DNA of 64,000 bases. Source: Candidatus Omnitrophota bacterium. GTDB taxonomy: Bacteria; Omnitrophota; Gorgyraeia; Zapsychrales; Zapsychraceae. A model generated the notes under the pieces. The model was not told the origin of the DNA. It did no database searches and worked only from the letters and a program-made list of their open reading frames with translations. The position numbers and the translations under genes are program-made. This document shows positions 1 through 18,697 of this stretch, one piece after another. Within the stretch, counting starts at the first letter, position 1. Each line of letters starts with the position of its first letter. The stretch is from contig JANQMA010000024.1 in NCBI GenBank assembly GCA_028280285.1, positions 117-64,116 of the forward strand, written 5' to 3'.

Positions 1-78
1 GTGAGCACCGCAGGTGCGAAACGAAAATCCTGCCCCCGCAACCAATTTTTCCTTGTGCTCCACGAGGAAAAAGATAAA

Positions 79-118
79 AACCCGTTCACTCCCCCCTGGG
101 AATGGACGGGTTTTTTGT
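79..118 (+). terminator. Rho-independent terminator-like hairpin (stem CCCGTTCA/TGGACGGG) followed by a T6 run, ending a gene that lies upstream of the window
   Basis: Inverted repeat 81-88/104-111, then tttttt at 112-117. Confidence 0.45.
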
Positions 119-173
119 GTTGAGGTAGAATTAAGTCTGTTGACGACATTTCCCTAATCTGTTTTAATACTTC

Positions 174-1172
174 ATGCCGCAAACACCTGCACCCATTAAA
201 TCTTATCATCAACTCTTAACTGCGATCCGCTCGACGGTAATGCAGTCGCGTAACACCATCGAGCGCACGTATGTCGCGATGTATTGGAATGTCGGACAGG
301 CGATTGATGCGTATATCAGTATCAACGGGCGCTTAAACGAAGACGGCACAACCGTTTTTAAACAACTCAGCGAAGATATTGAGGTCGATCAGCGCACGCT
401 GTATCAAGCGCATGATATGTACCGCGCTTATCCGCGTATTGATTACACATTGCCCTTAAGCTGGTCCCATTACCGGACACTCGCCCATATCAAATCGGCC
501 AAAGAGCGCAAGCGCTGGCAAGAGCGCATTATCCGCGAGAAATTAAGTGTGGCGCAGTTCAAGCAGGCCTTGCAGGCTCACGCAACGACGCAAAGTCAAA
601 AAAGGCCGCGTTCCGGGCGTCAACTCAAACCGATCAGGGGCAAGCTCTATCATTATCGTTTGATCAAGGCCGCGTCTATCAATCGACAACAAGATAAAAT
701 TGTCATTGATTGTGGTTTTAACAATCATGTCGACGTGCCGGCGTCATCGTTTGAACCGACGAATAAACGCATTGTGGCGTCCGTCAAAAACGATCGAGGA
801 TACTATACGATCAAACAAACCAAAGCAACCAAGGCCGATCTTTATACCTATATAGCTGCGGTGGAAAGGGTGGTCGATGGCGATACGCTCATTGTGTATA
901 TTGACTGCGGCTTTGGCATCTTTCGCCGGGAGCGCTTGCGCCTTAAACATGTCGACACACCCGAGATGACAACCATTGCCGGTAAACGCGCCAAAGCATT
1001 CGTAGAAAATGAACTGAAAAAATGCGCATTTGTGATCATCAATTCCTACTGGGAGGATGCCTACGGACGGTATTTGGCGGATCTATTTTTTCAGCCCGGT
1101 GAATCCGATCCGCATGTTGTGGCCGCCACCGGCATGCACCTCAACCAACTCCTATTGGATGAGGGCTGGTGA
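174..1172 (+). CDS. Nuclease-like fusion protein: DUF1016 (YhcG-type) N-terminal domain plus a staphylococcal-nuclease (SNase/thermonuclease)-like C-terminal domain
   Basis: The N-terminal ~145 aa carry the YhcG_N signature (YWNVGQ ... LSWSHYRTL). The C-terminus has the SNase motif VVDGDTLIVYIDCGFGIFRRERLRLKHVDTPEM. There is an internal partial duplication (KIVIDCGF / LIVYIDCGFGI). Confidence 0.7.
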   Translation: MPQTPAPIKSYHQLLTAIRSTVMQSRNTIERTYVAMYWNVGQAIDAYISINGRLNEDGTTVFKQLSEDIEVDQRTLYQAHDMYRAYPRIDYTLPLSWSHYRTLAHIKSAKERKRWQERIIREKLSVAQFKQALQAHATTQSQKRPRSGRQLKPIRGKLYHYRLIKAASINRQQDKIVIDCGFNNHVDVPASSFEPTNKRIVASVKNDRGYYTIKQTKATKADLYTYIAAVERVVDGDTLIVYIDCGFGIFRRERLRLKHVDTPEMTTIAGKRAKAFVENELKKCAFVIINSYWEDAYGRYLADLFFQPGESDPHVVAATGMHLNQLLLDEGW

Positions 1173-1177
1173 TCTAT

Positions 1178-1200
1178 TAAATAGTGCCAGGCACTATTTA
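1178..1200. repeat. REP-like palindrome, family 1 (TAAATAGTGCCaGGCACTATTTA), 5 nt after the stop codon
   Basis: Perfect 11-bp arms. The same palindrome recurs at 12588-12610, 22755-22775 (half-site), 29327-29337 (half-site), 48197-48218 (variant) and 49716-49744. Confidence 0.7.
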
Positions 1201-1210
1201 TACTTCAGTT

Positions 1211-1264
1211 AGAGCGGGCAAAGCTATGGGATTAAGGAGCAGGGAAACCTGCTCCTTTTTTTTA
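1211..1264 (+). terminator. Copy 1 of a ~55-bp direct repeat that ends in an intrinsic terminator (GGAGCAGG-gaaa-CCTGCTCC plus T9)
   Basis: Hairpin 1236-1255 and T-run 1256-1264. About 90% identical to 3381-3431. Confidence 0.6.
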
Positions 1265-1364
1265 ACTTTTCCGCCCCGTCATTTTTTGCTACACTGCCTG
1301 CGTGCCGAAAGCCTTAAGCAAAACAACGAAAACTTCTTACTAAAAATTCCTGCAAATAAATAAA

Positions 1365-2987
1365 ATGGACCAAACGTACATATTAACACCGCTACTGAAA
1401 CGAGCAGAAGAGCTTGATTTTACATTGAATGACCATTACGTGAATCTTCTTGAAGTGGGCCATGATGCATTACTGGCCCGTATTCACTTGATTCGCTCGG
1501 CTCAAAAAAGCATTTTAATCCAAACGTTTATTTGGCGTGATGATGAAGTGGGTTTAAAGATGCTTTTAGAGCTTTTTAAAGCGGCCAGACGCGGCGTTAA
1601 AGTCAAAATTCTTATTGATTACTGGGTGCTAAACAAAGAAAAAGGTCTTTTTAAATATATCAATTTTCAACACGAAAATTTTGAAATATTGATTTATAAC
1701 CCTTCCGGGAAAAGTCTTAAATTATCTGAATTAGAAATATTGCAGGCCGTCACCGTTGATTTTGAAAAGATCAATCATCGCATGCACAATAAAACATTTA
1801 TTATCGATGAGAAAATTGCTATTGTCGGTGGACGCAATTACGATAATATGTATTATGACCGTGGAAGTCGAATGAACTTCATTGATTTGGACCTTATGGT
1901 CATGGGTTGTGTTGTTAAAGATATACAGAAATCCTTTCATCTTTACCGGAATTGCGGCTTGTGCATCCGGCCTTTTGATTTTAAAGATATTGATCAAGAC
2001 TCTATTGATGTTTGCGAAGAGCGTCTGCAGAAAGCCTTTGCACGTTTTGCAGTGAATCTCTTTTCCGACTTGGATGCACAGCTGAGTGATGAAGCCTGCC
2101 TCAATGAAAAGTTTATTAAACCTGCCCTTAAAACCGATAAAATCCGTTTTGCTTATGACAAGCCGGAACTTGAATTTCGAATACAAGAAAGGCTTAACAG
2201 CGGCGTATTAAAAGATTTGGATGATTTGGTCCTTAATGCCAATGATTCTATACTGATACAGTCACCCTATTTTGTTTTAAGTCGTGAAGCGATTAAAGCG
2301 ATTAAAGAATTAGGGCGCACAAAGCCTAAACTTAAGATCACCGTTTCAACCAACAGTCTTGACGCTACAGATAATTTGTTAGCCTACGCCTTTTTAAATA
2401 AAGAAAAACATCTCTACACGAAAGATCTTAAAATCGATATTTTCGAAATGAAATCTAAACCAAACAATTTGAAAAAACTTGTTCATAATGATCTTTGGCA
2501 GAAAGGTAAGACAGAACATAAATATTTATGCATTCATGCCAAAGTGTTTATTATCGATAATCAAGTTTCATGTGTAGGAACCTATAATGCCGATGTGCGC
2601 TCTGAATATTTCAATACCGAGATTGCGTTAATCATTGATGATAAACACATCACGCAAGCCATAAAGCAAAGAATCACACAGTTAATGGAGCCCGTCAACA
2701 GCTGGACGGTTGCGCCCACCAAATATATACCCATTATCACAGAATTCAACGATCTTATGACCAAGCTATCCCACACGCTGCCGGTCATTGATCTGTGGCC
2801 GTTTCGCAATGTGAAATGCTATCAGTTAAAGGAAGGGCGAGCCCCTTTAGAAACCTTTCATCCTGATTTCCATATCCATTACCACCGGGTTGATCTACTT
2901 CCACAAGTCATGCGAAAACTAAAGGAAAAAAGAATAGTTGTCAGCCTGATTCAAATGTTCGGCCAGATCATTAAGCCGTTGGTCTGA
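1365..2987 (+). CDS. Phospholipase D superfamily protein with two HKD motifs (PLD nuclease / cardiolipin-synthase-like fold)
   Basis: HKD motif 1 is HRMHNKTFIIDEKIAIVGGRN and HKD motif 2 is HAKVFIIDNQVSCVGTYNAD. No obvious TM segments. Confidence 0.8.
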   Translation: MDQTYILTPLLKRAEELDFTLNDHYVNLLEVGHDALLARIHLIRSAQKSILIQTFIWRDDEVGLKMLLELFKAARRGVKVKILIDYWVLNKEKGLFKYINFQHENFEILIYNPSGKSLKLSELEILQAVTVDFEKINHRMHNKTFIIDEKIAIVGGRNYDNMYYDRGSRMNFIDLDLMVMGCVVKDIQKSFHLYRNCGLCIRPFDFKDIDQDSIDVCEERLQKAFARFAVNLFSDLDAQLSDEACLNEKFIKPALKTDKIRFAYDKPELEFRIQERLNSGVLKDLDDLVLNANDSILIQSPYFVLSREAIKAIKELGRTKPKLKITVSTNSLDATDNLLAYAFLNKEKHLYTKDLKIDIFEMKSKPNNLKKLVHNDLWQKGKTEHKYLCIHAKVFIIDNQVSCVGTYNADVRSEYFNTEIALIIDDKHITQAIKQRITQLMEPVNSWTVAPTKYIPIITEFNDLMTKLSHTLPVIDLWPFRNVKCYQLKEGRAPLETFHPDFHIHYHRVDLLPQVMRKLKEKRIVVSLIQMFGQIIKPLV

Positions 2988-3121
2988 GATTTTAACCGGT
3001 GGTTATAATAAGAGACAGCGCCTTAATTTCCCCTAACTGATAACCAATGCCCAATTGTTGTTACTGAGATTAAATAGTGCCATAAATAATGCATCGCAGT
3101 ATTTAACTATTTATTATTTTC

Positions 3122-3160
3122 TTGACAATACATACATTTGTGTGGTATAAAAAATACCCC
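3122..3160 (+). promoter_or_regulatory. Near-consensus sigma70 promoter (TTGACA-18-TATAAA with upstream TGTGTGG) driving the tRNA
   Basis: cTTGACAatacatacatttgtgtggTATAAAa. Shares TGTGTGGTATAAA with the promoter at 14076-14110. Confidence 0.5.
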
Positions 3161-3213
3161 CCCTAAGAAGTAAAATTCCATATAAGTTGTACGCTTATTT
3201 ATTGGCAGAAAGT

Positions 3214-3286
3214 ACCCCTATAGCTTAATTGGATAAAGCCCACTCTGGCGATGTTGGAGATGTGAGTTCGAGTCTCACTAGGGGTA
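3214..3286 (+). tRNA. tRNA gene with a clear cloverleaf: acceptor ACCCCTA/TAGGGGT, D-arm GCTT-AATTGGATA-AAGC, T-arm GTGAG-TTCGAGT-CTCAC. The anticodon arm pairs poorly when folded by hand, so the isotype is unresolved (possible GGC loop CTGGCGA)
   Basis: Manual fold. Conserved U8, A14, G18G19, A21 and the T-loop TTCGAGT are present. No CCA is encoded. The anticodon stem has only 3 of 5 pairs in the best register. Confidence 0.55.
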
Positions 3287-3380
3287 TAGTTTTTTCTGTC
3301 TACTTCGGGAAAGGGCCAGAGCTTTCCCGGAACAATATTTTCTTGAAAAATTATTTAGAATAGATATACTTAATATAGTC

Positions 3381-3431
3381 AGAGTGGGAAAAGCTATAGG
3401 ACAAGGAGCAGGGAAACCTGCTCCTTTTTTT
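3381..3431 (+). repeat. Copy 2 of the ~55-bp direct repeat with terminator (GGAGCAGGGAAACCTGCTCC plus T7). It is preceded by a sigma70-like promoter (TTGAAA 3343-3348, 16 nt, TATACT 3365-3370), making it a candidate ~55-nt sRNA
   Basis: Hairpin 3405-3424. Repeat of 1211-1264. The promoter spacing places the TSS at about 3377. Confidence 0.4.
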
Positions 3432-3509
3432 GTTCCACAATCGTTTAACTGTGTTATACTATCTCAATTATTCCCCCCTCGGTTTTCCCCTTAAACACAG
3501 GAGGAAAAC

Positions 3510-3584
3510 ATGTCTCAATTAATTCCCGAAGAAGTGGAATGGGAGTCTTTAAGATTCCAATTTGGAAGCTTAAAGCGAGGGTAA
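3510..3584 (+). CDS. 24-aa microprotein (MSQLIPEEVEWESLRFQFGSLKRG) with a strong SD (AGGAGGaaaacATG) and its own promoter-like TGtTATACT
   Basis: RBS spacing is ideal. The ORF is short and uncharacterised. Confidence 0.3.
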   Translation: MSQLIPEEVEWESLRFQFGSLKRG

Positions 3585-3602
3585 CACCCTAAATACTGAC
3601 CG

Positions 3603-3631
3603 TTGACAAAATCATATTTAAGTATTATACT
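3603..3631 (+). promoter_or_regulatory. Sigma70 promoter TTGACA-17-TATACT upstream of the Fic gene
   Basis: cgTTGACAaaatcatatttaagtatTATACT. A further TATAAT lies at 3675-3680. Confidence 0.5.
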
Positions 3632-3687
3632 AGTAGAAAATTAGTAGTTATTTTATCATAAATAATTGGTATATAATGGTTTAATAT

Positions 3688-4923
3688 ATGAATACTAATG
3701 AAAACATAGAAAAAGAATTTATTAATAAACGGTATCTAAGTAAAGAGGAAGTAGGATACCGTGTACCAAATAATCTCTCGCTGGAGGATTATTGGGGAAG
3801 CATCCAGAAGGCTCGACATCAGCGTGCTGTAAAAATGCCGTTTGAAGATCAGGAAAAGCATCCATTTTGGTTTGTACTAACTTCTTCTTTGCAGCAAAGT
3901 CTTCATGAGATTGATTCTTTAGGCAGAGACTCTATATATCGGTTGGTAAGAGAAGAAATTGAATCAGAAATGATTCAAGATTCATTAATGGAAGAGGCTG
4001 TCTTTTCCAGCGCTATTGAAGGCGCATTTTCCACGGTTAAACGCCTTAAGGAAATGGTGAATAAAAAACAAAGCCCGGAGGATATTAATGACAAGATGGT
4101 GTTTAATAATTATGAAGCCATGCAGTTTATTCTTAGAGAAAAACATAGAAATTTAGATATTGATCTTATTTTAGAACTACAAAAGATTGTCACAAAAGAT
4201 ACTATGGGCGAGGATGATGCAGCCTACTCCGGAAAATTTCGAGACGATTGGGTATACGTTAAAGACAAAAGAGACAGAGTGATTTATACTCCCCCCCATG
4301 CTGATCAAGTTTTACCTGCTATGGAAAAACTTGTTCAATGGATTAATCAGGAAAATGACGACGAATTTATTCACCCTATTATTAAAGCCGCATTTGTACA
4401 TCTTTACTTTGTCCATATTCACCCATTTTTTGATGGCAATGGAAGAACAGCGCGTGCGCTATTTTATTTTGATTTGATAAAAAATGAGTACGAATTTTTT
4501 AAATATTTCTCAATATCTGTTGCTGTTCAAAAAGCTAAAGGCAAATATTATAAAGCCATCCGTAATTCTGAAACACATGAAGGAGATTTTACATTTTTCC
4601 TTCTTTACATGGCAAAAACAATTCTTGAGTCTATTCATCTAGTTAAGTCAAGAATTGCACATCATTACCAAAAAGAATTGGTTATACAGCGCTTGAATAA
4701 GGAAGGCGTTTTATTAAATGGGCGACAAGAGAAATTTGTTAAACGTTTTTTTGTGATCGATCAACGGGTCATTACACTCAAGAAGTACCAGAGTTGGTTC
4801 AAAGTGGCTTACGAAACGGCTAGGCGCGATCTGGATGAGCTTTCGAAATGGAAGGTTTTAACGAAAGGAAAGCAAGGCAAGGCCTTCGTCTATCGCCCAA
4901 ATAATGAATTTGGCATTCAGTAA
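3688..4923 (+). CDS. Fic/Doc family protein (AMPylase-type), class II with an internal inhibitory motif
   Basis: Fic motif HPFFDGNGRTARAL. The N-terminal inhibitory helix motif S-x-x-x-E-G (FSSAIEGA) is on the same chain. Confidence 0.85.
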   Translation: MNTNENIEKEFINKRYLSKEEVGYRVPNNLSLEDYWGSIQKARHQRAVKMPFEDQEKHPFWFVLTSSLQQSLHEIDSLGRDSIYRLVREEIESEMIQDSLMEEAVFSSAIEGAFSTVKRLKEMVNKKQSPEDINDKMVFNNYEAMQFILREKHRNLDIDLILELQKIVTKDTMGEDDAAYSGKFRDDWVYVKDKRDRVIYTPPHADQVLPAMEKLVQWINQENDDEFIHPIIKAAFVHLYFVHIHPFFDGNGRTARALFYFDLIKNEYEFFKYFSISVAVQKAKGKYYKAIRNSETHEGDFTFFLLYMAKTILESIHLVKSRIAHHYQKELVIQRLNKEGVLLNGRQEKFVKRFFVIDQRVITLKKYQSWFKVAYETARRDLDELSKWKVLTKGKQGKAFVYRPNNEFGIQ

Positions 4924-5199
4924 TATATTAGTAATTCGATTTAACGTAAATCGTTGTTATATAGCAATTTGCGGGTATATTACTAATAACCTGTCAAACC
5001 GCGTATTGAAAAATCACATAGCGCTATTTTCCAAATATAACACTTTTCCACCATCTAGGTAGAATACTGTCTGTAGACGGGGTGCGGGTGTTCTGCTTAT
5101 AATAGCAGAATAATAACGGGGACATGTACAGCATTCGATTGATGAATTATGTACGTGTCCCCGGAATAAAAAAGCAAACACGACACCACAGCCCGGCTT

Positions 5200-6069
5200 A
5201 TGATAAACTTTCCTTACACCGACACAAAATTCTCAACCCTTACCAGCTATATCATGGCCTTATGCGCCCGGCGCGTCTATGATGATGACGCGGGTGCCAT
5301 TCAAACATTTTGCACCGACACACTCGGCACCAATCAATTCACATTTTTAAACCAAGGCGCCACCCAAGCCTTTGTGTGTGCGGATACGCGTTTTACCCTC
5401 ATTTGTTTTCGCGGCACGACGGATATTGATGATTGGATGACCAATATCAAGGCCAAGCTCATTGACGCGCCGATCGGCCGCGCGCATAAGGGATTCACCG
5501 AAGGGCTTGATGCCGTCTATCCGCAGATCCTTGATTTTATAAATCACCATGCACCCGCCCGCACACCGCTGTGGTTGTGTGGACACAGCCTAGGTGGTGC
5601 GCTCGCAACTCTCTGTGCGCTGCGTTTGAGGCTTAAACGCACAAACATTTGCGGGCTCTATACATTTGGCTCCCCGCGTGTGGTAGACGCAAACGCCGGC
5701 GATTATCTCGCGAGCGTCCTGCCGAACCGCATCTGGCGTTTTGTGAACAATGAAGACATCGTCACCCGTGTGCCGCCGGCATCCATGGGGTATGATCACC
5801 TCGGGCGCATCCGTTATTTTGATAATACAGGCGTGATGCACAAACACATGAGCTACTGGCGCCGGTTTAAAGATCGGGTGAACAGCATCGAGATGCGCGC
5901 CCGCGAGCGCTACCGTGTGCTCCGCCACAACTATCCCGACGGCGTGGCCGACCACAGCATGGACCGCTATATCGACCGCATTGTGCAGAACATGACCACG
6001 GATGAAAAATCCCAGGCCGCCCTCGCCCCCACGCAAGCCGGGGAGTTTTTGGAGTTTGTGAATGGGTGA
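5200..6069 (+). CDS. Class 3 lipase / alpha-beta hydrolase (Lipase_3 family)
   Basis: Nucleophile elbow CGHSLGGALATLCA. The gene is conspicuously GC-rich compared with its neighbours. Confidence 0.75.
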   Translation: MINFPYTDTKFSTLTSYIMALCARRVYDDDAGAIQTFCTDTLGTNQFTFLNQGATQAFVCADTRFTLICFRGTTDIDDWMTNIKAKLIDAPIGRAHKGFTEGLDAVYPQILDFINHHAPARTPLWLCGHSLGGALATLCALRLRLKRTNICGLYTFGSPRVVDANAGDYLASVLPNRIWRFVNNEDIVTRVPPASMGYDHLGRIRYFDNTGVMHKHMSYWRRFKDRVNSIEMRARERYRVLRHNYPDGVADHSMDRYIDRIVQNMTTDEKSQAALAPTQAGEFLEFVNG

Positions 6070-6129
6070 GGGGAATGTTCAATTAAATATACGAAGCCTC
6101 TTATTATTTAAAAAGAATAAAATTCTCTA

Positions 6130-6582
6130 ATGAAATTATCTTGGAAAAATTTTGTAGATATAACGACAATTATTTGGTTAATTATTTTTTTTGTTGGTTT
6201 TTACACAAACGAAAATGTTCAACGCATCTGTCTTATTTTTAATACTATTATTCTTTTTGTTTTTCTTTTAGATTTAATTTTCATTTATCGAAAATTTGGC
6301 CGTAAAAGAGATTTTATTAAAAATCATTGGTTTGATGTTATGATGATTATTCCATATTTTCGTATTTTTCGCATTGTTCGTAGTTTGAAGTTTTTAAAAG
6401 TGTTGAACAAATTAAAAGTGTTTAAATTTATTAAAAAATCTCGTATTTTAAGAGGAACTTGGATTGCGCATGAGGTTTCTGATTTAGGACGAACAATTAG
6501 GCAAAGATTTGGAAAACACAATTCTAATTTAAATAGTAATAAAATCTTTAGAGAAAGGAAACGACATGGCAGTAATACCTAA
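6130..6582 (+). CDS. Voltage-sensor-domain-like membrane protein (ion_trans S1-S4 only, no pore domain)
   Basis: Four TM segments. The S3-like segment NHWFDVMMIIPYF resembles the Kv S3 N-x-ID-x-AIIPYF. The S4-like segment RIFRIVRSLKFLKVLNKLKVFKF has a basic residue every third position. The C-terminal tail is basic. The 3' end overlaps the next gene by 17 nt. Confidence 0.55.
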   Translation: MKLSWKNFVDITTIIWLIIFFVGFYTNENVQRICLIFNTIILFVFLLDLIFIYRKFGRKRDFIKNHWFDVMMIIPYFRIFRIVRSLKFLKVLNKLKVFKFIKKSRILRGTWIAHEVSDLGRTIRQRFGKHNSNLNSNKIFRERKRHGSNT

Positions 6583-7378
6583 GAAAATAGTCGAACGTTT
6601 TACGAAGAATATTGTAAAATATCAGCGAGTTTTAAAGACGGCAAAAGATCAGGATGTTAACGAGACTGATACAGTTGCAATAATAAATGACATATTTTCA
6701 GATGTTTTTGGATATGATAAATATACAGAAATTACGAGTGAACTTTCAATTAGAGGGACGTTTTGTGATTTAGCTGTCAAGATCGATGACAAGTTTGCTT
6801 ATCTTATCGAGTGTAAAGCAATTGGACTTGATTTAAAAGATAACCACCTTAGACAGGCTGTTAATTATGGGGTAAATAAAGGAATTCAGTGGATTATTCT
6901 AACAAATGGTCATTTATGGAATTTGTATTATATTCGTTTCGAAAAACCTGTGACGCATGATTTGGTGGTTAGTATTGATTTGTTGAATATGAAACCAAAA
7001 GATAAAAAGACGATTGAGGATCTTTATTTGTTTTCTAAGGAGGGTTTAAATCGAAGTGTGCGAGAGGATTATTATGATAAAGTTAAGAGTGTGAACCGTT
7101 TCATTGTTGGTAATTTATTGTTGAGCGAGCCTGTTGTTAATATTGTACGTAAAGAGCTTAGAAAACTTGCAGAGGGAGTCAAAATTGAGCCGAATGAAAT
7201 ATTGGATATTATTCAAAGAGGTGTTTTAAAAAGAGATATTTTTGACGGTGAAGAGGCAAAAGAAGCCCAATCCAGGCTAAAAAAGTTTTTTAAGAAAAAT
7301 ACTCGGAAAAAGGTTAAAACGAAAACCAAAACTATTTCTCAAAAGTCATCCGAACCAGTGATGCAAGATGTCGAATAA
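6566..7378 (+). CDS. HsdR-N-terminal-like PD-(D/E)xK nuclease domain protein with a Lys-rich tail
   Basis: FCDLAV ... YLIECKA ... QWIILTNGHLWNLYY matches the type I restriction HsdR_N signature (D ... ExK ... lTNG). The tail KKNTRKKVKTKTKT is basic. Confidence 0.65.
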   Translation: MAVIPKKIVERFTKNIVKYQRVLKTAKDQDVNETDTVAIINDIFSDVFGYDKYTEITSELSIRGTFCDLAVKIDDKFAYLIECKAIGLDLKDNHLRQAVNYGVNKGIQWIILTNGHLWNLYYIRFEKPVTHDLVVSIDLLNMKPKDKKTIEDLYLFSKEGLNRSVREDYYDKVKSVNRFIVGNLLLSEPVVNIVRKELRKLAEGVKIEPNEILDIIQRGVLKRDIFDGEEAKEAQSRLKKFFKKNTRKKVKTKTKTISQKSSEPVMQDVE

Positions 7379-7446
7379 ATAATATCATTTTGAACTTGTC
7401 TCGATAAAATGGACACTATTTTTAGAAAAAGAAATAATTTATTTGT

Positions 7447-10400
7447 ATGGAAGATATTGATTTAGCTAACTATATAAAATACTGCCTTGGTTATGTAAAA
7501 CTAACTCAACGTAGGACCTTTGTCTCCCAACAAAGATACTCAACGAATCTACCTAGTGAATACTTTGGTTTAATAGGATTATTAAATTTAGATTTAGATG
7601 GAAAATTAAGTGAGCTCATTAATTTTGAGACATTTTATTCAAATGATCCTAAGAATTTGTCAGAGGAAATTAAAGAAAAATACGAATTCGAGAAAAATCT
7701 AGCAAAAATTATTGACGATATTTATAACAAACATAAAAATGATCAGTTTACTAAACAAATTGTTCTCAACTTTGGGTATTTTGAAATAGAAATGCCTGTT
7801 GAGATTCTAGATGAAGAAGTGGAAAAGGGGGAGGGGGAAGAAAATTTAGAGGTAGAAGTTCAGGTCGATAGATATCCATTGTTTTCTGTTCCAGTAAGAA
7901 TTGAAAAAGAACTTAGTGAAGGGGTTCCACAATATTACGTCTATACCGTAGATCCAGAAATTCACATTAATGTAGGAATGTTAGAGTCTGTATTAGACAA
8001 TGACTTATACTACCAATTGGTAGAAAAGTTGGGAGAATATGAGAATAATGAAAAGCTAATTCTCCCTATCACTGAAGATGCGATATTTGTAGAAATATGG
8101 CATTTAATCAAAGCTCAGTTAAAATTAAAAGATGTAGCATTCGATGAAAAGTCTTTCAAATTAGAAGAAATACACATTTCTTTAGGGGCAAGATCAAATT
8201 ACTTCTTAGCAGAAGATTTACATAAATTGTCGAAGCTTAAAGAAAAAGATTTGTCTGGTACTTCTTTGACAAGTTGGACAAATAATGAAGGGTTAAGTGC
8301 AGAATCTAATATTCCAGGAGAAAAAGAATTATACTTTCCATTCTTATACGATAAGTTTCAACTAAGGGTTCTTAAGGTCATCAATAATAAAGCATCTGTA
8401 ATACAAGGGCCGCCTGGTACTGGAAAATCAGAAACAATATCAAATTTGCTTTGTCATTTAGCTGCTAATGGCAAGAAAGTTTTATTTGTAAGCCAAAAGG
8501 CACAGGCTTTAAAGGTAGTAAAAGATAAACTCAAGAAGTTAGATATACCATATTTGTTTGGTTACCTACCCAACCCCGCTTCAGCGCAATTAAATGAAAT
8601 TGATGAAGAGGATGGAATAGCTATTCAGCTAACTGCATTGGGTTCTTTAATCGAAAAAATGAGTTATGAAAATCAAAAAAATAATAGCTCTAATAAGTCA
8701 TTAGATAGTGTTGTTAAGAAGAAGCAAGGAGTTCAAAGCGGTTTTATTGATGGGATTGAGTGCGAAAGAAAAGTTTTTAATTTGATGGGGGAGTTGAATG
8801 CTCTTAAAGAATATGATTTGGAATTGGTAAATTTAGCTGATTTTAGTCTTAACTTTTCAAAAGACGAGAGAGATTTTATTAGAGGATTAATTTTTGATAT
8901 TAATAGAGTTGAGGATCAAATTTCTCAATATAATTCATCAACCAATGAGAATAGCTATAGAGATTTATTTAGTACTGTGGATTTTAGCGCTCAAAAATAT
9001 TTTGATGTTTTGGAGAAATTTAAAGAGGACTATTCTAAATCTGGGTATGATCGAAATAATAAAATTATACGAAAATGTAATAACTTTATAAGAAATTTTC
9101 GTCTGGGTAAGCAAAGGTCAAAATTACCAAGGGAAATAGTGAATTATATTGATAGCTTGGTTAATGATGATATCTCAAAAAGCGTTGGGCTTAAGAAATT
9201 AAGCGACCTTTCTGAGTATATTCTTTTTTGTGAAAATAATTTTTTAAATGAGGATTTGAATAAAAAATTAATAAATGCATGCTCCAAAAACGGTATTAAT
9301 TTAGAATTGCTTGATAAAATGGATGCTTTTGTTGAAAGCACAAAGGCTAGAGATGTTGATCAGGTTAAAGAAAGGATATTAAAGGTTAGTGCTTTAAGAA
9401 ATGAAATTGATGATTTAAAAAAAGACAATGATTTAGATTTAAATAGATACTCTAGTGATATGCAAAATATACATAATGACCGAAGTAAGAGAATTGCACT
9501 TTATTTGAAGAATATTATTAATAAAGATCTTATGAATAGTTGGAAAGGCAGTGTCTCCGTCAAGCAAATAATTACAAAATTAGCTAAAGCATTTGGCAAG
9601 TCTAAGAAAGCGTTTAAAACGTTTGATAAATTGAGAAATGATCCAAATAACTTCAAAACGATCCTTAACTTAATACCAATTTGGACTATGGAATTAGACG
9701 ATGCAAGTCGAATTGTTCCTTTGGAGGCAAATTTATTTGACTATGTAGTATTAGATGAGGCTTCACAATGTAATATTGCGTATACTTTGCCAGTAATGTT
9801 TAGAGCTGGTAAGGCCGTATTTGTAGGAGATAGTGAACAGATGCGTGATAGTACTATAATGTTTAAATCTAATAGATCTTTTGACGAGCTAGCAAAAAGA
9901 TACAAAATTCCTGAAGAGTTACAAATAAAGTCAACGGGCTCAGCAGTTCAGTCTATCTTAGATATTGCAACATCAAGAGGGTTTTGGTCAACGCCTCTGA
10001 GATTTCATTATAGATCGCCAAGCGAGTTGATAGGTTTTAGTAATAAATCATTTTATAAACCTAAAGGAAAAGAATTAATTCCTTTGAACAATAGTTATTT
10101 GGCATATAAAGATACTAATAGAGTGATGCTTACTCATAGGATCAAACCTGATTGGAATAAAGAAATTTCCGAAAAAGTAAATGTTGCAGAAGCTAAAGCT
10201 ATTCTTGAGTTCTTTAAGGAAATAAAAAAAGATGACTATCTTAAAGATAAGTCTGTAGGAATATTATCATTTTTTAATTCTCAAGCTACGTATATTCGAG
10301 AGTTGTTTGAGAAAGAGGGGTTTAAAGAAGATGAGAATAATTATAAAGTAAGTATTATTGAAGGTATTCAAGGAGACGAAAAGGATATAATTATTTATTC

Positions 10401-10983
10401 ATTTGTAATTAAATCGCCAGATCAAAAGAATAAATACTACCCTCTAACAGGGGAAGGGGGGGATATACGAGGTGATATAAATCGTGGACGAGTAAACGTT
10501 GCGTTTTCAAGAGCGCGATTGCAGGTTCACTGTTTTACGAGTTTAGATGTAAATGATATGCCAGATAAAATTTGGTTAAAGAAATATCTCGAATATGTTG
10601 AGAAACAAGGTAAGGTCGACTTTTATTCAACAGAATTAAAACCATTTGATTCCAATTTTGAGAAAGAATTTTATGGTTTTACTAGAGAAAAGCTAGATCA
10701 GAATTATTTAATTCAGAATCAAGTAAAAAGTTGTGGTTTCAAGATAGACTTTGTAATTACAAATTCTAGTACAGGGAAAAGAATTGCAGTTGAATGTGAC
10801 GGACCTACTCATTTCAAGAATGAATTGGATGAAGAGCTTGATATTTATGTAGATAGTGATGAAGAAAGACAAAGAGTTTTGGAAGCAGCGGGATGGAGAT
10901 TTTATAGGTTGAAGTATTCAGACTGGATTAATCCTGATTTTAAAAAAAACAAATATATTGAGGAAATGAAAGCATTGCTTTAG
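7447..10983 (+). CDS. Superfamily-1 (Upf1/DNA2-like, AAA_11/AAA_12) helicase with an N-terminal DUF4011-like region and a C-terminal DUF559 (Vsr-like PD-(D/E)xK) endonuclease domain
   Basis: Walker A is GPPGTGKSETISNLL. Helicase motifs are VLDEASQ and the RNVAFSRAR-like GRVNVAFSRAR. The C-terminus FKIDFVITNSSTGKRIAVECDGPTHF ... AAGWRFYRL is DUF559-type. Confidence 0.8.
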   Translation: MEDIDLANYIKYCLGYVKLTQRRTFVSQQRYSTNLPSEYFGLIGLLNLDLDGKLSELINFETFYSNDPKNLSEEIKEKYEFEKNLAKIIDDIYNKHKNDQFTKQIVLNFGYFEIEMPVEILDEEVEKGEGEENLEVEVQVDRYPLFSVPVRIEKELSEGVPQYYVYTVDPEIHINVGMLESVLDNDLYYQLVEKLGEYENNEKLILPITEDAIFVEIWHLIKAQLKLKDVAFDEKSFKLEEIHISLGARSNYFLAEDLHKLSKLKEKDLSGTSLTSWTNNEGLSAESNIPGEKELYFPFLYDKFQLRVLKVINNKASVIQGPPGTGKSETISNLLCHLAANGKKVLFVSQKAQALKVVKDKLKKLDIPYLFGYLPNPASAQLNEIDEEDGIAIQLTALGSLIEKMSYENQKNNSSNKSLDSVVKKKQGVQSGFIDGIECERKVFNLMGELNALKEYDLELVNLADFSLNFSKDERDFIRGLIFDINRVEDQISQYNSSTNENSYRDLFSTVDFSAQKYFDVLEKFKEDYSKSGYDRNNKIIRKCNNFIRNFRLGKQRSKLPREIVNYIDSLVNDDISKSVGLKKLSDLSEYILFCENNFLNEDLNKKLINACSKNGINLELLDKMDAFVESTKARDVDQVKERILKVSALRNEIDDLKKDNDLDLNRYSSDMQNIHNDRSKRIALYLKNIINKDLMNSWKGSVSVKQIITKLAKAFGKSKKAFKTFDKLRNDPNNFKTILNLIPIWTMELDDASRIVPLEANLFDYVVLDEASQCNIAYTLPVMFRAGKAVFVGDSEQMRDSTIMFKSNRSFDELAKRYKIPEELQIKSTGSAVQSILDIATSRGFWSTPLRFHYRSPSELIGFSNKSFYKPKGKELIPLNNSYLAYKDTNRVMLTHRIKPDWNKEISEKVNVAEAKAILEFFKEIKKDDYLKDKSVGILSFFNSQATYIRELFEKEGFKEDENNYKVSIIEGIQGDEKDIIIYSFVIKSPDQKNKYYPLTGEGGDIRGDINRGRVNVAFSRARLQVHCFTSLDVNDMPDKIWLKKYLEYVEKQGKVDFYSTELKPFDSNFEKEFYGFTREKLDQNYLIQNQVKSCGFKIDFVITNSSTGKRIAVECDGPTHFKNELDEELDIYVDSDEERQRVLEAAGWRFYRLKYSDWINPDFKKNKYIEEMKALL

Positions 10984-11027
10984 AGTTTTTTGCAATTACT
11001 TATGAGATGATTCTTAGATGAATCTGG

Positions 11028-11038
11028 GTTCTGACATC
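11028..11038. repeat. Partial REP family 2 copy (GTTCTGACATC), right half only. It resembles 19598-19637
   Basis: tatgagatgattcttagatgaatctgggttctgacatcatttt versus tatgagataattcttacataaatctgttctgacaccattt. Confidence 0.5.
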
Positions 11039-11045
11039 ATTTTTT

Positions 11046-11567
11046 ATGGATTCCTATTTTTTAAAAGAAAGTATTTTGCTTATTATTGCAGGATGTATTG
11101 GGTATTTTTCTGCGATAAGAGTACAAGATAGAGAAAGAAATTGCAATTTTAGGAATATGATTAAGATTCTGTATGGTGAGATGGAGAGTGCATATAGAAT
11201 TTTGTTTATTGGTGATAATCAAATTTATTCTGGAGATTTAAGAAATATTTTGATGAATTATAGAAAATTTAACTTAAGAAATTATGAGGCTATTCTTCCA
11301 GAAATCATTGGGCATAAATATTTTGAAAGAAATTGCGGATTTTTTAAAAAAATAGATTATATCTATTTATTATTAGATGAGATAAATGATCGGATAAATG
11401 CAATGATTCCTTATAAGGATGACTTAAATAATTATTGCGTAGATCATAAAAAGTTAATAGATTTAATGGATGAGGTTCGTCATTATTATTCTAAAGATAT
11501 AACACATAGCTCTAATGCTAAATTTGAGGAAACAGAATTATACAAAGGTTTTAAATCACTTTTTTAA
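11046..11567 (+). CDS. Hypothetical protein with an N-terminal TM anchor, in the AT-rich module
   Basis: An ORF with TM helix ILLIIAGCIGYFSAI and no recognisable domain. There is no clear RBS. Confidence 0.4.
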   Translation: MDSYFLKESILLIIAGCIGYFSAIRVQDRERNCNFRNMIKILYGEMESAYRILFIGDNQIYSGDLRNILMNYRKFNLRNYEAILPEIIGHKYFERNCGFFKKIDYIYLLLDEINDRINAMIPYKDDLNNYCVDHKKLIDLMDEVRHYYSKDITHSSNAKFEETELYKGFKSLF

Positions 11568-11618
11568 TTAGTAACAATTAATAAATATCTAGATACGAAT
11601 TCTATTTTTTGATTTGAA

Positions 11619-11846
11619 TTAATAATTAAGAAGTTTGGAAGGGGTTGTCTTCAGGGCTTTTGCTATTTTGAATAAAACTTGAAGTGATGGAAGGTCAGCT
11701 TGAGAGGTCATTTCCAGTCTTTGCCAATATTTATATGTAATTCCTGCCTTTTCCGCAGCTTGTTCCTGCGTCAATCCTAACTTGCCACGGTAATCCTTAA
11801 CATTTTTGACAAGAATACGTTTAATTTTCTTTTGTGCATTTGTCAT
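11619..11846 (-). CDS. XRE-family HTH transcriptional regulator
   Basis: HTH_XRE motif LGLTQEQAAEKAGITYKYWQRLE. Confidence 0.8.
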   Translation of the reverse strand: MTNAQKKIKRILVKNVKDYRGKLGLTQEQAAEKAGITYKYWQRLEMTSQADLPSLQVLFKIAKALKTTPSKLLNY

Positions 11847-11924
11847 AAGTTTATTATGTAATAAAATACCTTAGCGGTACACTCAGGATAAGGTATGTAA
11901 TATTTCTTTACATATCTTATAGGT

Positions 11925-12125
11925 ATGCATATAATATTGAGCATGAAGGCCGAAAGAGAGGCTATCGCCGATATTAAGAATGCGCTGCAGCATCCCCAAA
12001 CGATTTTGGAAATCATGAAAGATAAGAGGGGTAATCAAAATAAGATTCCGATCGAGGATGTGGATAATGGATTAAAGGCGATTCGCCGGGCGGTCAGGTT
12101 ACTTAATAAATTAGCGAAGTGGTAA
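11925..12125 (+). CDS. Small hypothetical protein (66 aa), divergent from the XRE regulator
   Basis: ORF only. Confidence 0.3.
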   Translation: MHIILSMKAEREAIADIKNALQHPQTILEIMKDKRGNQNKIPIEDVDNGLKAIRRAVRLLNKLAKW

Positions 12126-12595
12126 TGGCAGGAAAGACAAGATACGTGTGGCATAAAATTAGTGCTCTATTTTCATGTAAGAAAGGGGGCGCTCATCAAC
12201 CCCCAAAAGTCATTCTGGTAATCGAAGACAATGACGTCGATATGCGGATTATTGAAAAGAGTCTTAAGGGGCTTAATTGCCGGATTCTCAAAGCCACGGG
12301 CGCGGCCGCCGGGCTTGCCCTGGCGCGCCGTAAAGCCCCTGATCTGATTATCCTCGATTGCCTCTTGCCTGAGATGCGCGGAGAGGAGGTCTGCCGCCGG
12401 CTTAAGACAGATGCCAAGACCAAGTCTATTCCGGTTGTCATTCTGACCGTGCTTGAGAACAATATCCTCGATTGCTATGAGGCCGGCGCCACCAAATACT
12501 TAAGCAAACCCATCACCCCCAAAATCCTCCGCCTCGAGGTCCAGGACGCCCTCGCCAACCCCACCCCGGTGATGGATGACGGGATTGATAAATAG
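12119..12595 (+). CDS. Stand-alone response-regulator receiver (CheY-like) protein. GC-rich gene; the N-terminal start is uncertain
   Basis: KVILVIEDNDVD ... LIILDCLLPEMRGEE ... KPI receiver signature. The stop TAG lies inside a family 1 REP palindrome. Confidence 0.7.
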   Translation: MVMAGKTRYVWHKISALFSCKKGGAHQPPKVILVIEDNDVDMRIIEKSLKGLNCRILKATGAAAGLALARRKAPDLIILDCLLPEMRGEEVCRRLKTDAKTKSIPVVILTVLENNILDCYEAGATKYLSKPITPKILRLEVQDALANPTPVMDDGIDK

Positions 12596-12610
12596 TACCC
12601 GGCACTATTG
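12588..12610. repeat. REP family 1 palindrome (ATAAATAGTACCCGGCACTATTG) overlapping the stop codon of the preceding gene
   Basis: Palindrome arms AATAGTACC/GGCACTATT. The TAG at 12593-12595 is embedded in it. Confidence 0.65.
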
Positions 12611-12675
12611 ATTTCTGCGTGCATTAGTATCACAAACTGTGACACCTTAAAATGAATGGGTTGGAAAAGTTTAAA

Positions 12676-12696
12676 CCGGTCGCAAATTGCGACCGG
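12676..12696. promoter_or_regulatory. Perfect 21-nt palindrome CCGGTCGCAAATTGCGACCGG, copy 1 of 3, upstream of the ORF6N gene. Candidate operator
   Basis: Read directly from the sequence. Related copies lie at 13015-13035 and 13052-13076. Confidence 0.5.
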
Positions 12697-12805
12697 TCCA
12701 AAACTTGACACTTCGCTTTCATCCCGCTAGAATAATCGCATCCCTCCAGAAGTTACCTATCACTAAAAACTTTCGATTTCTCCTATAAATACGAAGGAGA
12801 AGTGT

Positions 12806-13726
12806 ATGTCAACCAAAGTAAATCGATCACATAATAAAAAATTACTCCAAAGCAAGATCTACACCATACGTGGCCTACAGGTCATGTTGGATAGCGATTT
12901 AGCCGAGTTCTATAATGTAGCTGTAAAAAGATTGAATGAACAAGTTAAGAGGAATGTTGACCGGTTTCCGAAAGAGTTTAGATTTCAGATCACCAATAAT
13001 GAATATAATGCTCTAAGGTCGCAATCTGCGACCTTAAAAGAGGGTAAAAACTTGAGGTCGCAAATTGCGACCTCAAGTTCTAAACATGGAGGAAGGAGAT
13101 ACCAGCCATACGTATTTACAGAGCAAGGTGTGGCTATGCTTTCTACCGTGCTTAATAGCGAACAAGCCATAAAAATGAGTGTTCAAATTATCAAAGCATT
13201 CGTAAGTATGCGTAAGTTGATAGCCAATAATGCACTTGTTTTTCAAAGATTGGAGAAAGTTGAACAAAAGCAATTAGCCACAGATGTTAAGCTAGATCAA
13301 GTTTTTGCGGCTATCGAGGCTAAGGACATAAAACCCCAACAAGGTATATTCTTTGATGGGCAGGTTTTTGATGCGTATGTATTTGTGTCGAAACTCATTA
13401 AAAGCGCTAAAAGATCAATCATATTGGTTGATAATTATATTGATGAATCGGTGCTGATGCTGCTTTCTAAAAGAAAAAGCAAGTGTGCTGCCACTATTTA
13501 TACTAAAACTATTTCTAAAAAACTACAGTTGGACTTAAAGAAACATAATGAACAATACTCCCCCATAGAAATTAAATCATTCAAAAATGCCCATGACCGA
13601 TTTTTGATTTTGGATGAAAAGGAAATCTATCATATCGGCGCATCGTTAAAAGATCTGGGTAAAAAATGGTTTGCTTTCTCCAAGTTCGATAAACGAATCT
13701 TGGACGTTTTAAAAAGATTGCGGTGA
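12806..13726 (+). CDS. ORF6N-domain protein (phage-type DNA-binding N-terminal domain) with an uncharacterised C-terminal half
   Basis: N-terminus KIYTIRGLQVMLDSDLAEFYNV ... YQPYVFTEQGVAMLSTVL is typical of ORF6N. The coding region contains two copies of the palindrome at 13015-13035 and 13052-13076, which produce the repeat LRSQSATL / LRSQIATS. Confidence 0.65.
   Translation: MSTKVNRSHNKKLLQSKIYTIRGLQVMLDSDLAEFYNVAVKRLNEQVKRNVDRFPKEFRFQITNNEYNALRSQSATLKEGKNLRSQIATSSSKHGGRRYQPYVFTEQGVAMLSTVLNSEQAIKMSVQIIKAFVSMRKLIANNALVFQRLEKVEQKQLATDVKLDQVFAAIEAKDIKPQQGIFFDGQVFDAYVFVSKLIKSAKRSIILVDNYIDESVLMLLSKRKSKCAATIYTKTISKKLQLDLKKHNEQYSPIEIKSFKNAHDRFLILDEKEIYHIGASLKDLGKKWFAFSKFDKRILDVLKRLR
13015..13076. 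repeat. Two palindromes (AAGGTCGCAATCTGCGACCTT and TTGAGGTCGCAAATTGCGACCTCAA) inside the ORF6N coding sequence
   Basis: The core GGTCGCAAwyTGCGACC also occurs at 12676-12696. Confidence 0.6.
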
Positions 13727-13750
13727 AGTTAGGGATAATAGGAGGAAATC

Positions 13751-14041
13751 ATGAAAGATTATTTTTTCAATACACAAATTGTTATTTTAGTGTCCCGGCA
13801 GGAATCCGGGATTTTAAAAAATCTGGTGATTTATGAGCCTTGGATTCTGGATAAACTAGAAGGCATAGATTGGTTTGAGGATTGTGCATGGCTAGAATTT
13901 GATTGGGAGGAAATAGAAGATTTAGAATCCGCACTCCAGGCACACATAACAGATTCAGGATTATCTTTAGGATTGAAACAATTGTTGGAGAAAATCCAAC
14001 ATATTATATGTGAGTATAATAATTTCACACTAGGATACTAA
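13751..14041 (+). CDS. Small acidic hypothetical protein (96 aa) with a strong SD
   Basis: RBS aataGGAGGaaatcATG. No recognisable domain. Confidence 0.45.
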   Translation: MKDYFFNTQIVILVSRQESGILKNLVIYEPWILDKLEGIDWFEDCAWLEFDWEEIEDLESALQAHITDSGLSLGLKQLLEKIQHIICEYNNFTLGY

Positions 14042-17000: not shown

Positions 17001-17955
17001 CCGCGTTGCCGAATCTATTTATTGGATGAGCCGCTACATAGAACGGGCCGAAAATTATGCACGGTTTATCGATGTCAATCTGTCGCTTATTATGGACTTG
17101 CCTAAAAACATGTCCGAGCAATGGCAGCCGCTCGTGCGCGTTACAGGGGACGATGTGCTGTATGAAACCATTTACGGCAATTTTTCCCGTGATAATGTGA
17201 TTGAATTTTTAACATTCAATAAAAATAATCCCAACTCCATTCTCAGTTGTTTAATCCAGGCCCGTGAAAGCGCGCGGACCATCCGCGAGATCATTTCAAG
17301 CGAGATGTGGCAGCAAATCAATGAACTGTATTTGGCGGTGAAAGACGCCACGCTCACCGAAAACAGCGACCTGTCGGTTTTTTACGCGCAAATCAAAAGC
17401 GGAACGCATTTATTTAACGGCATTATGGACTCGACGCTCATTCACAATGAAGCGTATCATTTTGCCAATTTGGGCCGCTTGCTGGAAAGGGCCGATAAAA
17501 CAGACAGGATTTTGGACATGAAGTATTTTTATTTGCTGCCGCGCATCGAGGATGTCGGAACGACACTCGATTATCTGCAATGGTCGGCGCTGCTTAAGTC
17601 AACTTCGTCCTACGAGGTGTACCGGAAAAAATACGGCAAGATGGATTATCGTCATATCATTGAGTTTCTTATTTTTGACCGCGAGTTTCCGCGCGCCATT
17701 TACTTTTGCCTGCTTGAGTCGGATAAATCACTCCACGCGATCACCAATACGCAACTGGCCACATTTAACAATTATGCCGAAAAGGAAATGGGCAAGATTA
17801 TCTCACAACTCAGTTTTAATGATGTGCAGGACGTGATCAATTATGGGCTTCATGAATACTTGGACGATTTTCAAGTGAAGCTTAATATTTTAAACGAAGA
17901 AATATTTAATACGTTTTTTTCTCAATCGAATCTTTTAAATGGAGTCCGTTTATGA
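16993..17955 (+). CDS. Alpha-E domain protein (DUF403)
   Basis: MLSRVAESIYWMSRYIERAENYARF is the hallmark alpha-E N-terminus. ATGcTTAG overlaps the upstream stop. Confidence 0.8.
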   Translation: MLSRVAESIYWMSRYIERAENYARFIDVNLSLIMDLPKNMSEQWQPLVRVTGDDVLYETIYGNFSRDNVIEFLTFNKNNPNSILSCLIQARESARTIREIISSEMWQQINELYLAVKDATLTENSDLSVFYAQIKSGTHLFNGIMDSTLIHNEAYHFANLGRLLERADKTDRILDMKYFYLLPRIEDVGTTLDYLQWSALLKSTSSYEVYRKKYGKMDYRHIIEFLIFDREFPRAIYFCLLESDKSLHAITNTQLATFNNYAEKEMGKIISQLSFNDVQDVINYGLHEYLDDFQVKLNILNEEIFNTFFSQSNLLNGVRL

Positions 17956-18695: not shown

Positions 18696-18697
18696 CG

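Follow-up and report, generated by a model that had tools for sequence, protein, structure and literature searches.

A 64,000-nucleotide (nt) stretch of DNA from a Candidatus Omnitrophota bacterium (contig JANQMA010000024.1 of assembly GCA_028280285.1; the whole stretch is termed the window here) contains an open reading frame (ORF) at positions 6130–6582 of the plus strand whose 150-amino-acid product is, judged by its conserved residues and alignments, a real voltage-sensor domain (VSD) without an ion pore. The protein belongs to a family of approximately 190 short homologs (110–170 amino acids) from bacterial and archaeal metagenome assemblies. This family is apparently undescribed so far, and a full-text literature search found no description of a prokaryotic family of pore-less voltage sensors. 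The family, its extended array of positive charges, and its association with a nuclease seem to be new here, whereas the domain itself and the pore-less sensors of eukaryotes are already known.

A voltage-sensor domain without a pore

The initial annotation of this DNA, made by a model from the sequence alone, had proposed a stand-alone S1–S4 protein at 6130–6582, and the ORF is present exactly as described. The stop-to-stop frame opens at 6121, so the ATG at 6130 is the sole possible upstream start. The protein matches Pfam Ion_trans (PF00520) with 28.5 bits (E 1.1e-6; gathering cut-off, 25 bits) over profile positions 4–116 of 241, which correspond to S1–S4 only; no other Pfam domain and no NCBIfam model matches it. 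The claimed lack of S5-P-S6 pore helices also held, in that the Ion_trans match ends at S4 and a profile of full-length channels, run on six-frame ORFs of the whole window, returned S1–S4 matches only and no remnant of a pore. The gene and the predicted parts of its product are listed below.

6130–6582, plus strand: VSD-only gene, 150 amino acids, Ion_trans match, member of the short-protein family (approximately 190)
6151–6204, plus strand: S1, residues ~8–25 (D10, T13, W16, L17, and F20 conserved in the family), from the alignment, an AlphaFold2 helix, and a hydropathy peak
6220–6291, plus strand: S2, residues ~31–54 (N38; F45-x-x-D48), from the alignment of 74 members and an AlphaFold2 helix
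6313–6360, plus strand: S3a, residues 62–77, FIKNHWFDVMMIIPYF, with W67, D69, and P75, aligned to S3 of KvAP-like channels, KvAP, and NaChBac
6361–6453, plus strand: period-3 basic repeat, residues 78–108, spanning the S3b equivalent, S4, and the segment beyond S4
6463–6576, plus strand: C-terminal helix and basic tail, residues 112–149 (AlphaFold2 helix 112–149), including the HEVSDLGRTIRQRF motif

Across 74 aligned members, F45, D48, W67, P75, and R78 are invariant, and W5, D10, T13, W16, L17, F20, F62, D69, R81, and R87 are at least 90% conserved. By alignment, the gating-charge transfer center is made up of F45-x-x-D48 (S2) and D69 (S3). N38 lies seven residues ahead of F45, a spacing equal to the one that separates N49 from F56 in NavAb.

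The family is related, as its alignments indicate, to a clade of KvAP-like six-helix cation channels (PF00520 plus PF07885, 260–290 amino acids) and probably descends from it. Compared with 33 full-length channels, the family aligns without gaps over S1–S4 (hhalign 99.2%, E 8.9e-20), and these channels in turn align end to end with KvAP. Both groups share the IP-x-x-R-I-F-R junction, in which the Arg repeat directly follows the S3 proline, as well as the F-x-x-D of S2 and an over-long Arg repeat of approximately nine charges. Residues 62–77, which had been read as a Kv-type S3, indeed align to S3 in this clade. The two groups differ in that the channels continue into S5, a pore loop, S6, and a cytoplasmic tail, whereas the VSD-only protein ends after its basic helix, and in that the channels carry Thr at the S3 position where the VSD-only family keeps Asp. 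Among solved structures, the family profile reaches only NaChBac (E 0.005). A shifted register on Kv1.2, placing S1 of the family on S2 of the channel, reached only E ~0.2 and was dropped for the significant register that is consistent with the full-length channels. Members of the KvAP-like clade (P0215–P0250) have an unusual filter, TTMGSEYWP, the counterpart of TTVGYGD in K+ channels, and no published counterpart of this clade was identified.

An exhaustive HMMER search of 1.84 billion representative proteins gave 178 matches with E ≤ 1e-3, including 46 with E ≤ 1e-10, and the length of almost every match was 110–170 amino acids; a word-indexed protein search matched only the VSD-only protein itself. 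The profile search leaves a gap between the short family, which scores from E 1e-41 to approximately 1e-21, and the full channels (260–290 amino acids), which appear only at E ≥ 1e-12. Members come from Pseudomonadota, Sedimentisphaerales, Pontiella, Chloroflexota, Dehalococcoidia, Desulfurococcales, and Nitrososphaerales, and all named members are annotated as "hypothetical" apart from one "ion transporter." The family is rare, patchy across bacteria and archaea, and often located on genomic islands.

The homologs were also checked as possible 5ʹ fragments of full channels. At 14 genome loci and 36 metagenome loci they are complete short ORFs, many of them within long contigs (up to 2.66 Mb). 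The pairwise ratio of nonsynonymous to synonymous substitution rates (dN/dS) is 0.09–0.5, mostly 0.1–0.3, where the synonymous rate is informative, and the genes are under purifying selection. Furthermore, among six-frame stop-to-stop ORFs searched with the full-channel profile, no pore-only ORF occurs within approximately 8 kb in 63 loci or in the 64-kb window; beside the short genes, this profile matched model positions up to 141 only, that is, S1–S4. The homologs are thus consistently short, complete, and stand-alone, which rules out a pseudogene or split gene, and the proposal of a voltage-sensor protein without a pore is well supported by these results together with the hhalign match.

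Some relatives are longer. In a larger sub-family (P0072, P0142, P0067, P0091, P0106, and P0127; 264–373 amino acids), approximately 130 residues with extra hydrophobic helices precede the sensor, and a conserved FFS-x-x-SGFN and Lys-rich, histone-H1-like tails come after it; Pfam finds Ion_trans or no family in these proteins. One 287-amino-acid relative (P0203, L064:6001–6864) has a soluble N-terminal extension of approximately 160 residues without a detectable family and has a transposase, a TIR/pentapeptide protein, and a kinase fragment in its vicinity. The sensor would here, if the extension is genuine, be joined to a cytoplasmic domain, an arrangement known from voltage-sensing phosphatases. 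A reading by eye of this extension and of a neighbor at another locus (L004) as PIN nucleases was unsupported by BLASTP and Pfam even at E ≤ 10. Lastly, in a 411-amino-acid ORF (L040:7137–8372), a C-terminus of the VSD family follows the N-terminal half of a DUF2851 domain (E 1.5e-32), which may reflect a genuine fusion or else read-through of an upstream gene that was truncated.

The charge repeat, predicted topology, and other voltage sensors

The unusual feature of the protein is a run of basic residues at every third position: R78, R81, R84, K87, K90, N93, K96, K99, K102, R105, and R108 (RRRKKnKKKRR), with N93 as the sole non-basic member. The periodic basic S4 of the initial annotation is borne out by this series, with Arg or Lys at eight of the nine positions 78, 81 ... 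102. The repeat starts right after the IPYF of S3, nine residues past D69, and its part from residue 78 to 103 reads RIFRIVRSLKFLKVLNKLKVFKFIKK. Forty-seven residues remain after this part (residues 104–150), with 11 Lys or Arg versus three Asp or Glu, so the basic tail that had been noted is present as well. In 139 short members, basic residues at strict i+3 spacing number nine at the median and 18 at most, and the net charge of the tail is +15 at the median.

The position of the repeat relative to S4 can be read through the full-length relatives, which have the junction IPALRIFRIFR... and approximately nine Arg in the repeat. When these are aligned with KvAP, S3b and the loop of KvAP are matched by the first four Arg triplets, and R117, the first S4 charge, by the fifth. 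By transitivity through the KvAP-like channels, R78, R81, R84, and K87 would occupy the S3b and turn region; K90, N93, K96, K99, and K102 would be the S4 charges proper; and the rest of the repeat and tail would lie at the position of the S4–S5 linker and beyond. On this alignment, the repeat of Arg or Lys at every third residue has spread past S4 in both directions. In approximately one quarter of members, an acidic-amphipathic motif, HE-x-x-DL-x-RT, was seen by eye after S4 (for example, in P0002, P0006, P0008, and P0027).

Structure prediction reproduced only part of the four transmembrane helices that had been proposed. One AlphaFold2 run modeled the full protein from 74 sequences (predicted local distance difference test [pLDDT] score 72.0, predicted template modeling [pTM] score 0.37) and another residues 1–110 from 110 sequences including full channels (pLDDT 71.8, pTM 0.46). 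S1 and S2 were modeled in both runs, as helices at residues ~5–25 and ~28–56, but separate S3 and S4 helices were not, being replaced at modest confidence by one unbroken helix from residue 59 to 103 or 108; pLDDT is 52–69 over the basic repeat. The deeper alignment with full channels left the three-helix result unchanged. Hydropathy likewise marks only two strongly hydrophobic segments, and a Foldseek search of the model against the PDB gave no match. Nevertheless, two features favor an S3–S4 hairpin. First, the S2–S3 loop (six Lys or Arg) and the tail (21 Lys or Arg) lie on either side of S3–S4, and the positive-inside rule would place both in the cytoplasm. Second, the full channels have the same S3–S4 junction, and their S5 must be preceded by an even number of helices. 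The protein is therefore best placed, as far as its sequence can tell, in the inner membrane with both ends cytoplasmic and S3–S4 folded as a hairpin.

To our knowledge, the pore-less voltage-sensor proteins described so far, namely Hv1, the voltage-sensing phosphatases, and TMEM266, are eukaryotic. Hv1 is marked by an Asp in the middle of S1 that acts as selectivity filter and by an RxWRxxR motif in S4. Neither mark is found in the VSD-only protein; the conserved mid-S1 residues of its family are T13, W16, and F20, with D10 at the start of the helix, and S4 begins RIFRIVR. No significant sequence match to Hv1, TMEM266, or Ci-VSP was obtained, and no Hv1 chain is among the PDB matches even at E ≤ 10. 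Additionally, the closest relatives of the VSD-only family are of the Kv type rather than the Nav/Hv type, and its basic repeat is two to four times longer than in these three proteins. The PTEN-like phosphatase domain that Ci-VSP carries at its C-terminus has no counterpart, there being no domain beyond Ion_trans. Hv channels have not been found in bacteria or archaea according to a 2024 review (PMC13095418).

A parallel in domain content is Shaker-iVSD, an isolated Shaker sensor truncated after S4, which conducts cations with a preference for protons in the absence of a pore domain (PMC5092046). Like the VSD-only protein, it consists of a Kv S1–S4 with nothing after it. Shaker-iVSD is an artificial construct with an S4 of normal length, whereas the VSD-only family is natural and is known from sequence. 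The family can be viewed as the natural counterpart of the engineered isolated VSD. At 110–170 residues, its members would offer a very small system for studying S4 movement, with a charge array several times the normal length that extends into S3b.

The nuclease partner and the proposed role

In the window, the VSD-only gene is the first gene of a low-GC cassette. GC content falls from 0.568 at 5501–6000 to 0.292 at 6001–6500, stays at 0.26–0.34 to approximately 12000, and returns to 0.486 at 12001–12500. The cassette was probably acquired horizontally as one block, as its composition suggests; no flanking repeats or integrase were found for it, and scans for promoters and terminators were at or below shuffled expectation and hence uninformative. 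Its other features are given below.

6070–12050: low-GC cassette (26–34% GC) within DNA of 45–57% GC, from the composition profile
6566–7378, plus strand: HSDR_N_2 protein, 270 amino acids, PD-(D/E)xK nuclease fold (Pfam 26.1 bits; phrog_17239, E 3.9e-82)
7447–10983, plus strand: superfamily 1 (SF1) helicase (AAA_11/AAA_12) with a C-terminal REase_MTES_1575 nuclease domain, 1178 amino acids (Pfam)
11046–11567, plus strand: 173-amino-acid ORF with a hydrophobic N-terminus (ORF list)
11619–11846, minus strand: HTH_3 (XRE-type) regulator, 75 amino acids, at the far end of the cassette (Pfam HTH_3 on the identical gene in L001)

The start of the HSDR_N_2 gene overlaps the VSD-only gene by 17 nt. 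The HSDR_N_2 protein belongs to a large nuclease family of 2070 clusters labeled "predicted type IV restriction endonuclease," whose members are usually solitary, for example, directly after a cI-like repressor in Elusimicrobia prophages. In PADLOC-DB 2.0.0, no family matches this protein, and the helicase alone finds a match among the cassette genes tested (PDC-S37, 2.2e-73; Hhe, 7.6e-40). NCBIfam gives partial, below cut-off matches of the helicase to ProA and Hhe; it is probably an independent defense gene by these resemblances. The 173-amino-acid ORF has no Pfam, PADLOC, NCBIfam, or PHROG family.

The initial annotation called the sensor operonic with nucleases. This is true in the window, and the HSDR_N_2 part of it recurs: a gene of this family lies within 5 kb of a VSD-only gene in 3 of 43 non-redundant loci (a small sample), namely the window, a Pontiella locus (L008/L009), and an Acidobacteria locus (L066). 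The Pontiella relative (phmmer E 5e-106) lies two genes from the sensor on the same strand. The relative in the Acidobacteria metagenome-assembled genome (MAG) is 49% identical and lies 47 nt upstream; next to this pair are a helix-turn-helix (HTH) gene and genes of prophage type, one of them for a GH108 endolysin. From the frequency of the nuclease family, chance would place HSDR_N_2 beside a sensor in approximately 1e-4 loci, and even at a 1000-fold local enrichment, the observed co-occurrence has P ~1e-4. The three nuclease-linked sensors are not mutual nearest relatives (ranks 33–105 of 190). The pairing is not obligate, however, as 40 of the 43 sensor loci are without the nuclease, most of the more than 2000 HSDR_N_2 relatives have no sensor beside them, as in the sampled nuclease loci L057–L063, and the helicase never recurs. 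The link between HSDR_N_2 and the sensor is thus real but facultative. An ORF overlapping the 3ʹ end of the best homolog (L052), considered as a further HSDR_N_2 gene, is a family-2 glycosyltransferase.

The Pontiella MAG carries the same block of nuclease, 177-amino-acid gene, and sensor on two contigs (L008 and L009) with differing flanks. In L008, the intervening ORFs (3716–4114 and 5217–6260) are masked runs of N ending in near-identical peptides (...AWTLRGKTHNFHA). The block may be a repeated or mobile segment.

Taken together, the protein is a genuine and probably functional KvAP-related sensor without a pore. In what is on modest balance the most likely reading of its sequence and context, it would serve conflict or mobile-element genes as a voltage-linked accessory in the membrane. 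Its charged helix would shift with the membrane potential, and it would act alone or with variable partners rather than as a fixed subunit; in the window, it would be translationally coupled to an HsdR-N-type nuclease. Its output could take one of two forms. Protons or cations might leak through the sensor, as in the isolated Shaker sensor and Hv1; the precedent for such a leak is the conduction of the isolated Shaker sensor once the pore is removed (PMC5092046). Alternatively, the sensor might report depolarization, passing a voltage-dependent signal to its variable partners. An accessory role is suggested by its place as first gene of an acquired cassette in a defense island and by the nuclease partner that recurs in two other phyla, loosely as RexB stands beside RexA.

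In lambda, RexA is a DNA-binding sensor and RexB a four-helix membrane effector thought to depolarize the membrane (PMC12894663). The likeness is that a small inner-membrane protein is encoded beside a cytoplasmic partner and that the L066 pair lies in a prophage region near an HTH gene. Conversely, no sequence relationship was detected between RexAB and the sensor–nuclease pair, PADLOC matches neither the sensor nor the nuclease, the partner of the sensor has a PD-(D/E)xK nuclease fold rather than the RexA fold, and the pairing is not obligate. The likeness to RexAB is therefore one of analogy, not of membership.

A broader proposal, which appears rather unlikely, is that prokaryotic conflict systems use pore-less sensors, alone or with an HsdR-N nuclease in a Rex-like module of two genes, either to sense the depolarization that accompanies phage entry or to open an abortive leak of protons or cations. 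If it were true, immunity would gain its first voltage-sensor domain, and bacteria and archaea their first natural sensor without a pore, and the hyper-extended S4 could carry an unusually large gating charge. If the nuclease link is functional, membrane voltage would be an input or an output of anti-phage defense. Even if it is merely a small membrane protein, the family is a clean new one for annotation.

Several observations weigh against the favored reading of a pore-less sensor with a voltage-linked accessory role. Most members lie in unrelated or housekeeping settings (beside RuvCA and dodecin, UvrB, TFIIB, molybdopterin oxidoreductase, or CoA-transferase), so a defense role is either not general or not tied to the neighbors. 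The HSDR_N_2 association comprises three loci, one of which is the discovery case. No family of PADLOC-DB 2.0.0 matches the VSD-only protein, and no member was matched in IMG/VR viral contigs, PLSDB plasmids, or INPHARED phage genomes. The single S3–S4 helix of both AlphaFold2 models and the absence of the Hv1 marks point the same way.

Among the alternatives, it is unlikely that the voltage-sensor ancestry is vestigial and that the protein anchors at the membrane a long polycationic helix with affinity for DNA, RNA, or anionic lipids, by which nucleic acid or a mobile element, for example, would be tethered. The length of the repeat well exceeds a membrane span, larger relatives have histone-H1-like Lys-rich tails, and many neighbors act on DNA (HSDR_N_2, UvrB, RuvCA, an ExoX-like exonuclease, primase, SAP-domain proteins, and integrases), although these neighbors are a raw tally. 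The invariance or near invariance of F45, D48, and D69 would be unexpected if the sensor mechanics had been lost, and strict spacing at every third residue is the pattern of S4 rather than of a surface amphipathic helix.

It is also doubtful that the sensor is an obligate subunit of a multi-gene defense system comprising the whole cassette, in which it would detect the depolarization of infection and switch on the nucleases. The four genes concerned (sensor, HSDR_N_2 nuclease, helicase–nuclease, and 173-amino-acid ORF) share a strand and low GC and are separated by short gaps or overlap with no predicted terminator between them, and the HSDR_N_2 partner recurs. No relative of the helicase or of the 173-amino-acid protein, however, lies near any other VSD-only gene in the examined loci. 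Moreover, the helicase resembles the single-gene systems Hhe and PDC-S37, the HSDR_N_2 relatives are usually solitary, and none of the three nuclease-linked sensors has another of them as its closest relative.

It is improbable that the protein is a detached sensor subunit that docks on a pore-only or other channel encoded elsewhere, as part of a split channel or as an auxiliary subunit conferring voltage control on a host channel. The nearest relatives are complete channels with an identical S3–S4 junction, part of the family keeps a post-S4 segment resembling the S4–S5 linker, and co-assembly of a phosphatase voltage sensor with Kir2.1 is reported in a 2026 preprint (bioRxiv 10.64898/2026.08.07.743441). 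Against this, pore-type ORFs are missing from the surroundings of the 63 loci and from the window, and a channel subunit with a housekeeping role would hardly be expected to show a patchy, island-borne distribution. A 5ʹ channel fragment in decay or a chance resemblance, as might be suspected from the self-match of the word-indexed search and a Pfam score just over the cut-off, is highly improbable for a family of approximately 190 members with conserved length and invariant residues, dN/dS well below 1, an hhalign E of 9e-20, and no pore remnant in any frame.

Other neighborhoods and the wider window

Across the whole VSD-only family, no conserved neighbor emerged: among 122 neighbors from non-redundant loci, no Pfam family occurred more than three times (the most frequent being an archaeal phage integrase), and PADLOC gave single matches only. 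One member lies in an archaeal integrated element with a resolvase, a primase, and an integrase; others lie beside integrases, in a prophage-like region, adjoining a RelB/YafQ toxin–antitoxin pair, or after PLD and SNF2-helicase genes.

At six loci of one subclade, a basic ORF of 46–47 amino acids lies directly upstream of the VSD-only gene (L016:1293–1451, L019:196–354, L023:3345–3485, L024:133–273, L056:7834–7977, and L070:355–498). It has the pattern M-x-F/L-R-G-x-L-Y-x-x-A-K/R-L-M-G-D-x-N-A-V-K-K-G-K-V-G-K/R-R-V..., has no counterpart among Pfam or PHROG families, and does not occur in the window. The other flanking genes differ between these loci, so the ORF and the sensor look like a small two-gene unit. 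At three further loci, the sensor overlaps or abuts genes on the same strand (L038:1972–2424/2399–3232, L020:1309–1815/1818–2735, and L047:211–1374/1353–1784), which encode two double-zinc-ribbon proteins and an RNase_T exonuclease resembling ExoX. To judge from these gene arrangements, the sensor seems commonly to be coupled in translation to variable partners.

The cassette of the window is embedded in a defense island at positions 1–14041, which additionally includes the following.

174–1172: DUF1016_N and SNase protein (PDC-S02)
1365–2987: PLD-family protein
3213–3287: tRNA-Ala
3688–4923: SoFic
5200–6069: class-3 lipase, 57% GC
12806–13726: PDC-S05

The mosaic GC content of the island (26–57%) suggests that DNA was inserted repeatedly beside the tRNA gene. 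Elsewhere, the window is ordinary gram-negative chromosome and encodes AcrB and hybrid histidine kinases. An operon at 15492–19564, unrelated to the sensor, encodes circularly permuted ATP-grasp, Alpha-E domain, and transglutaminase-like proteins, all with strong Pfam matches.

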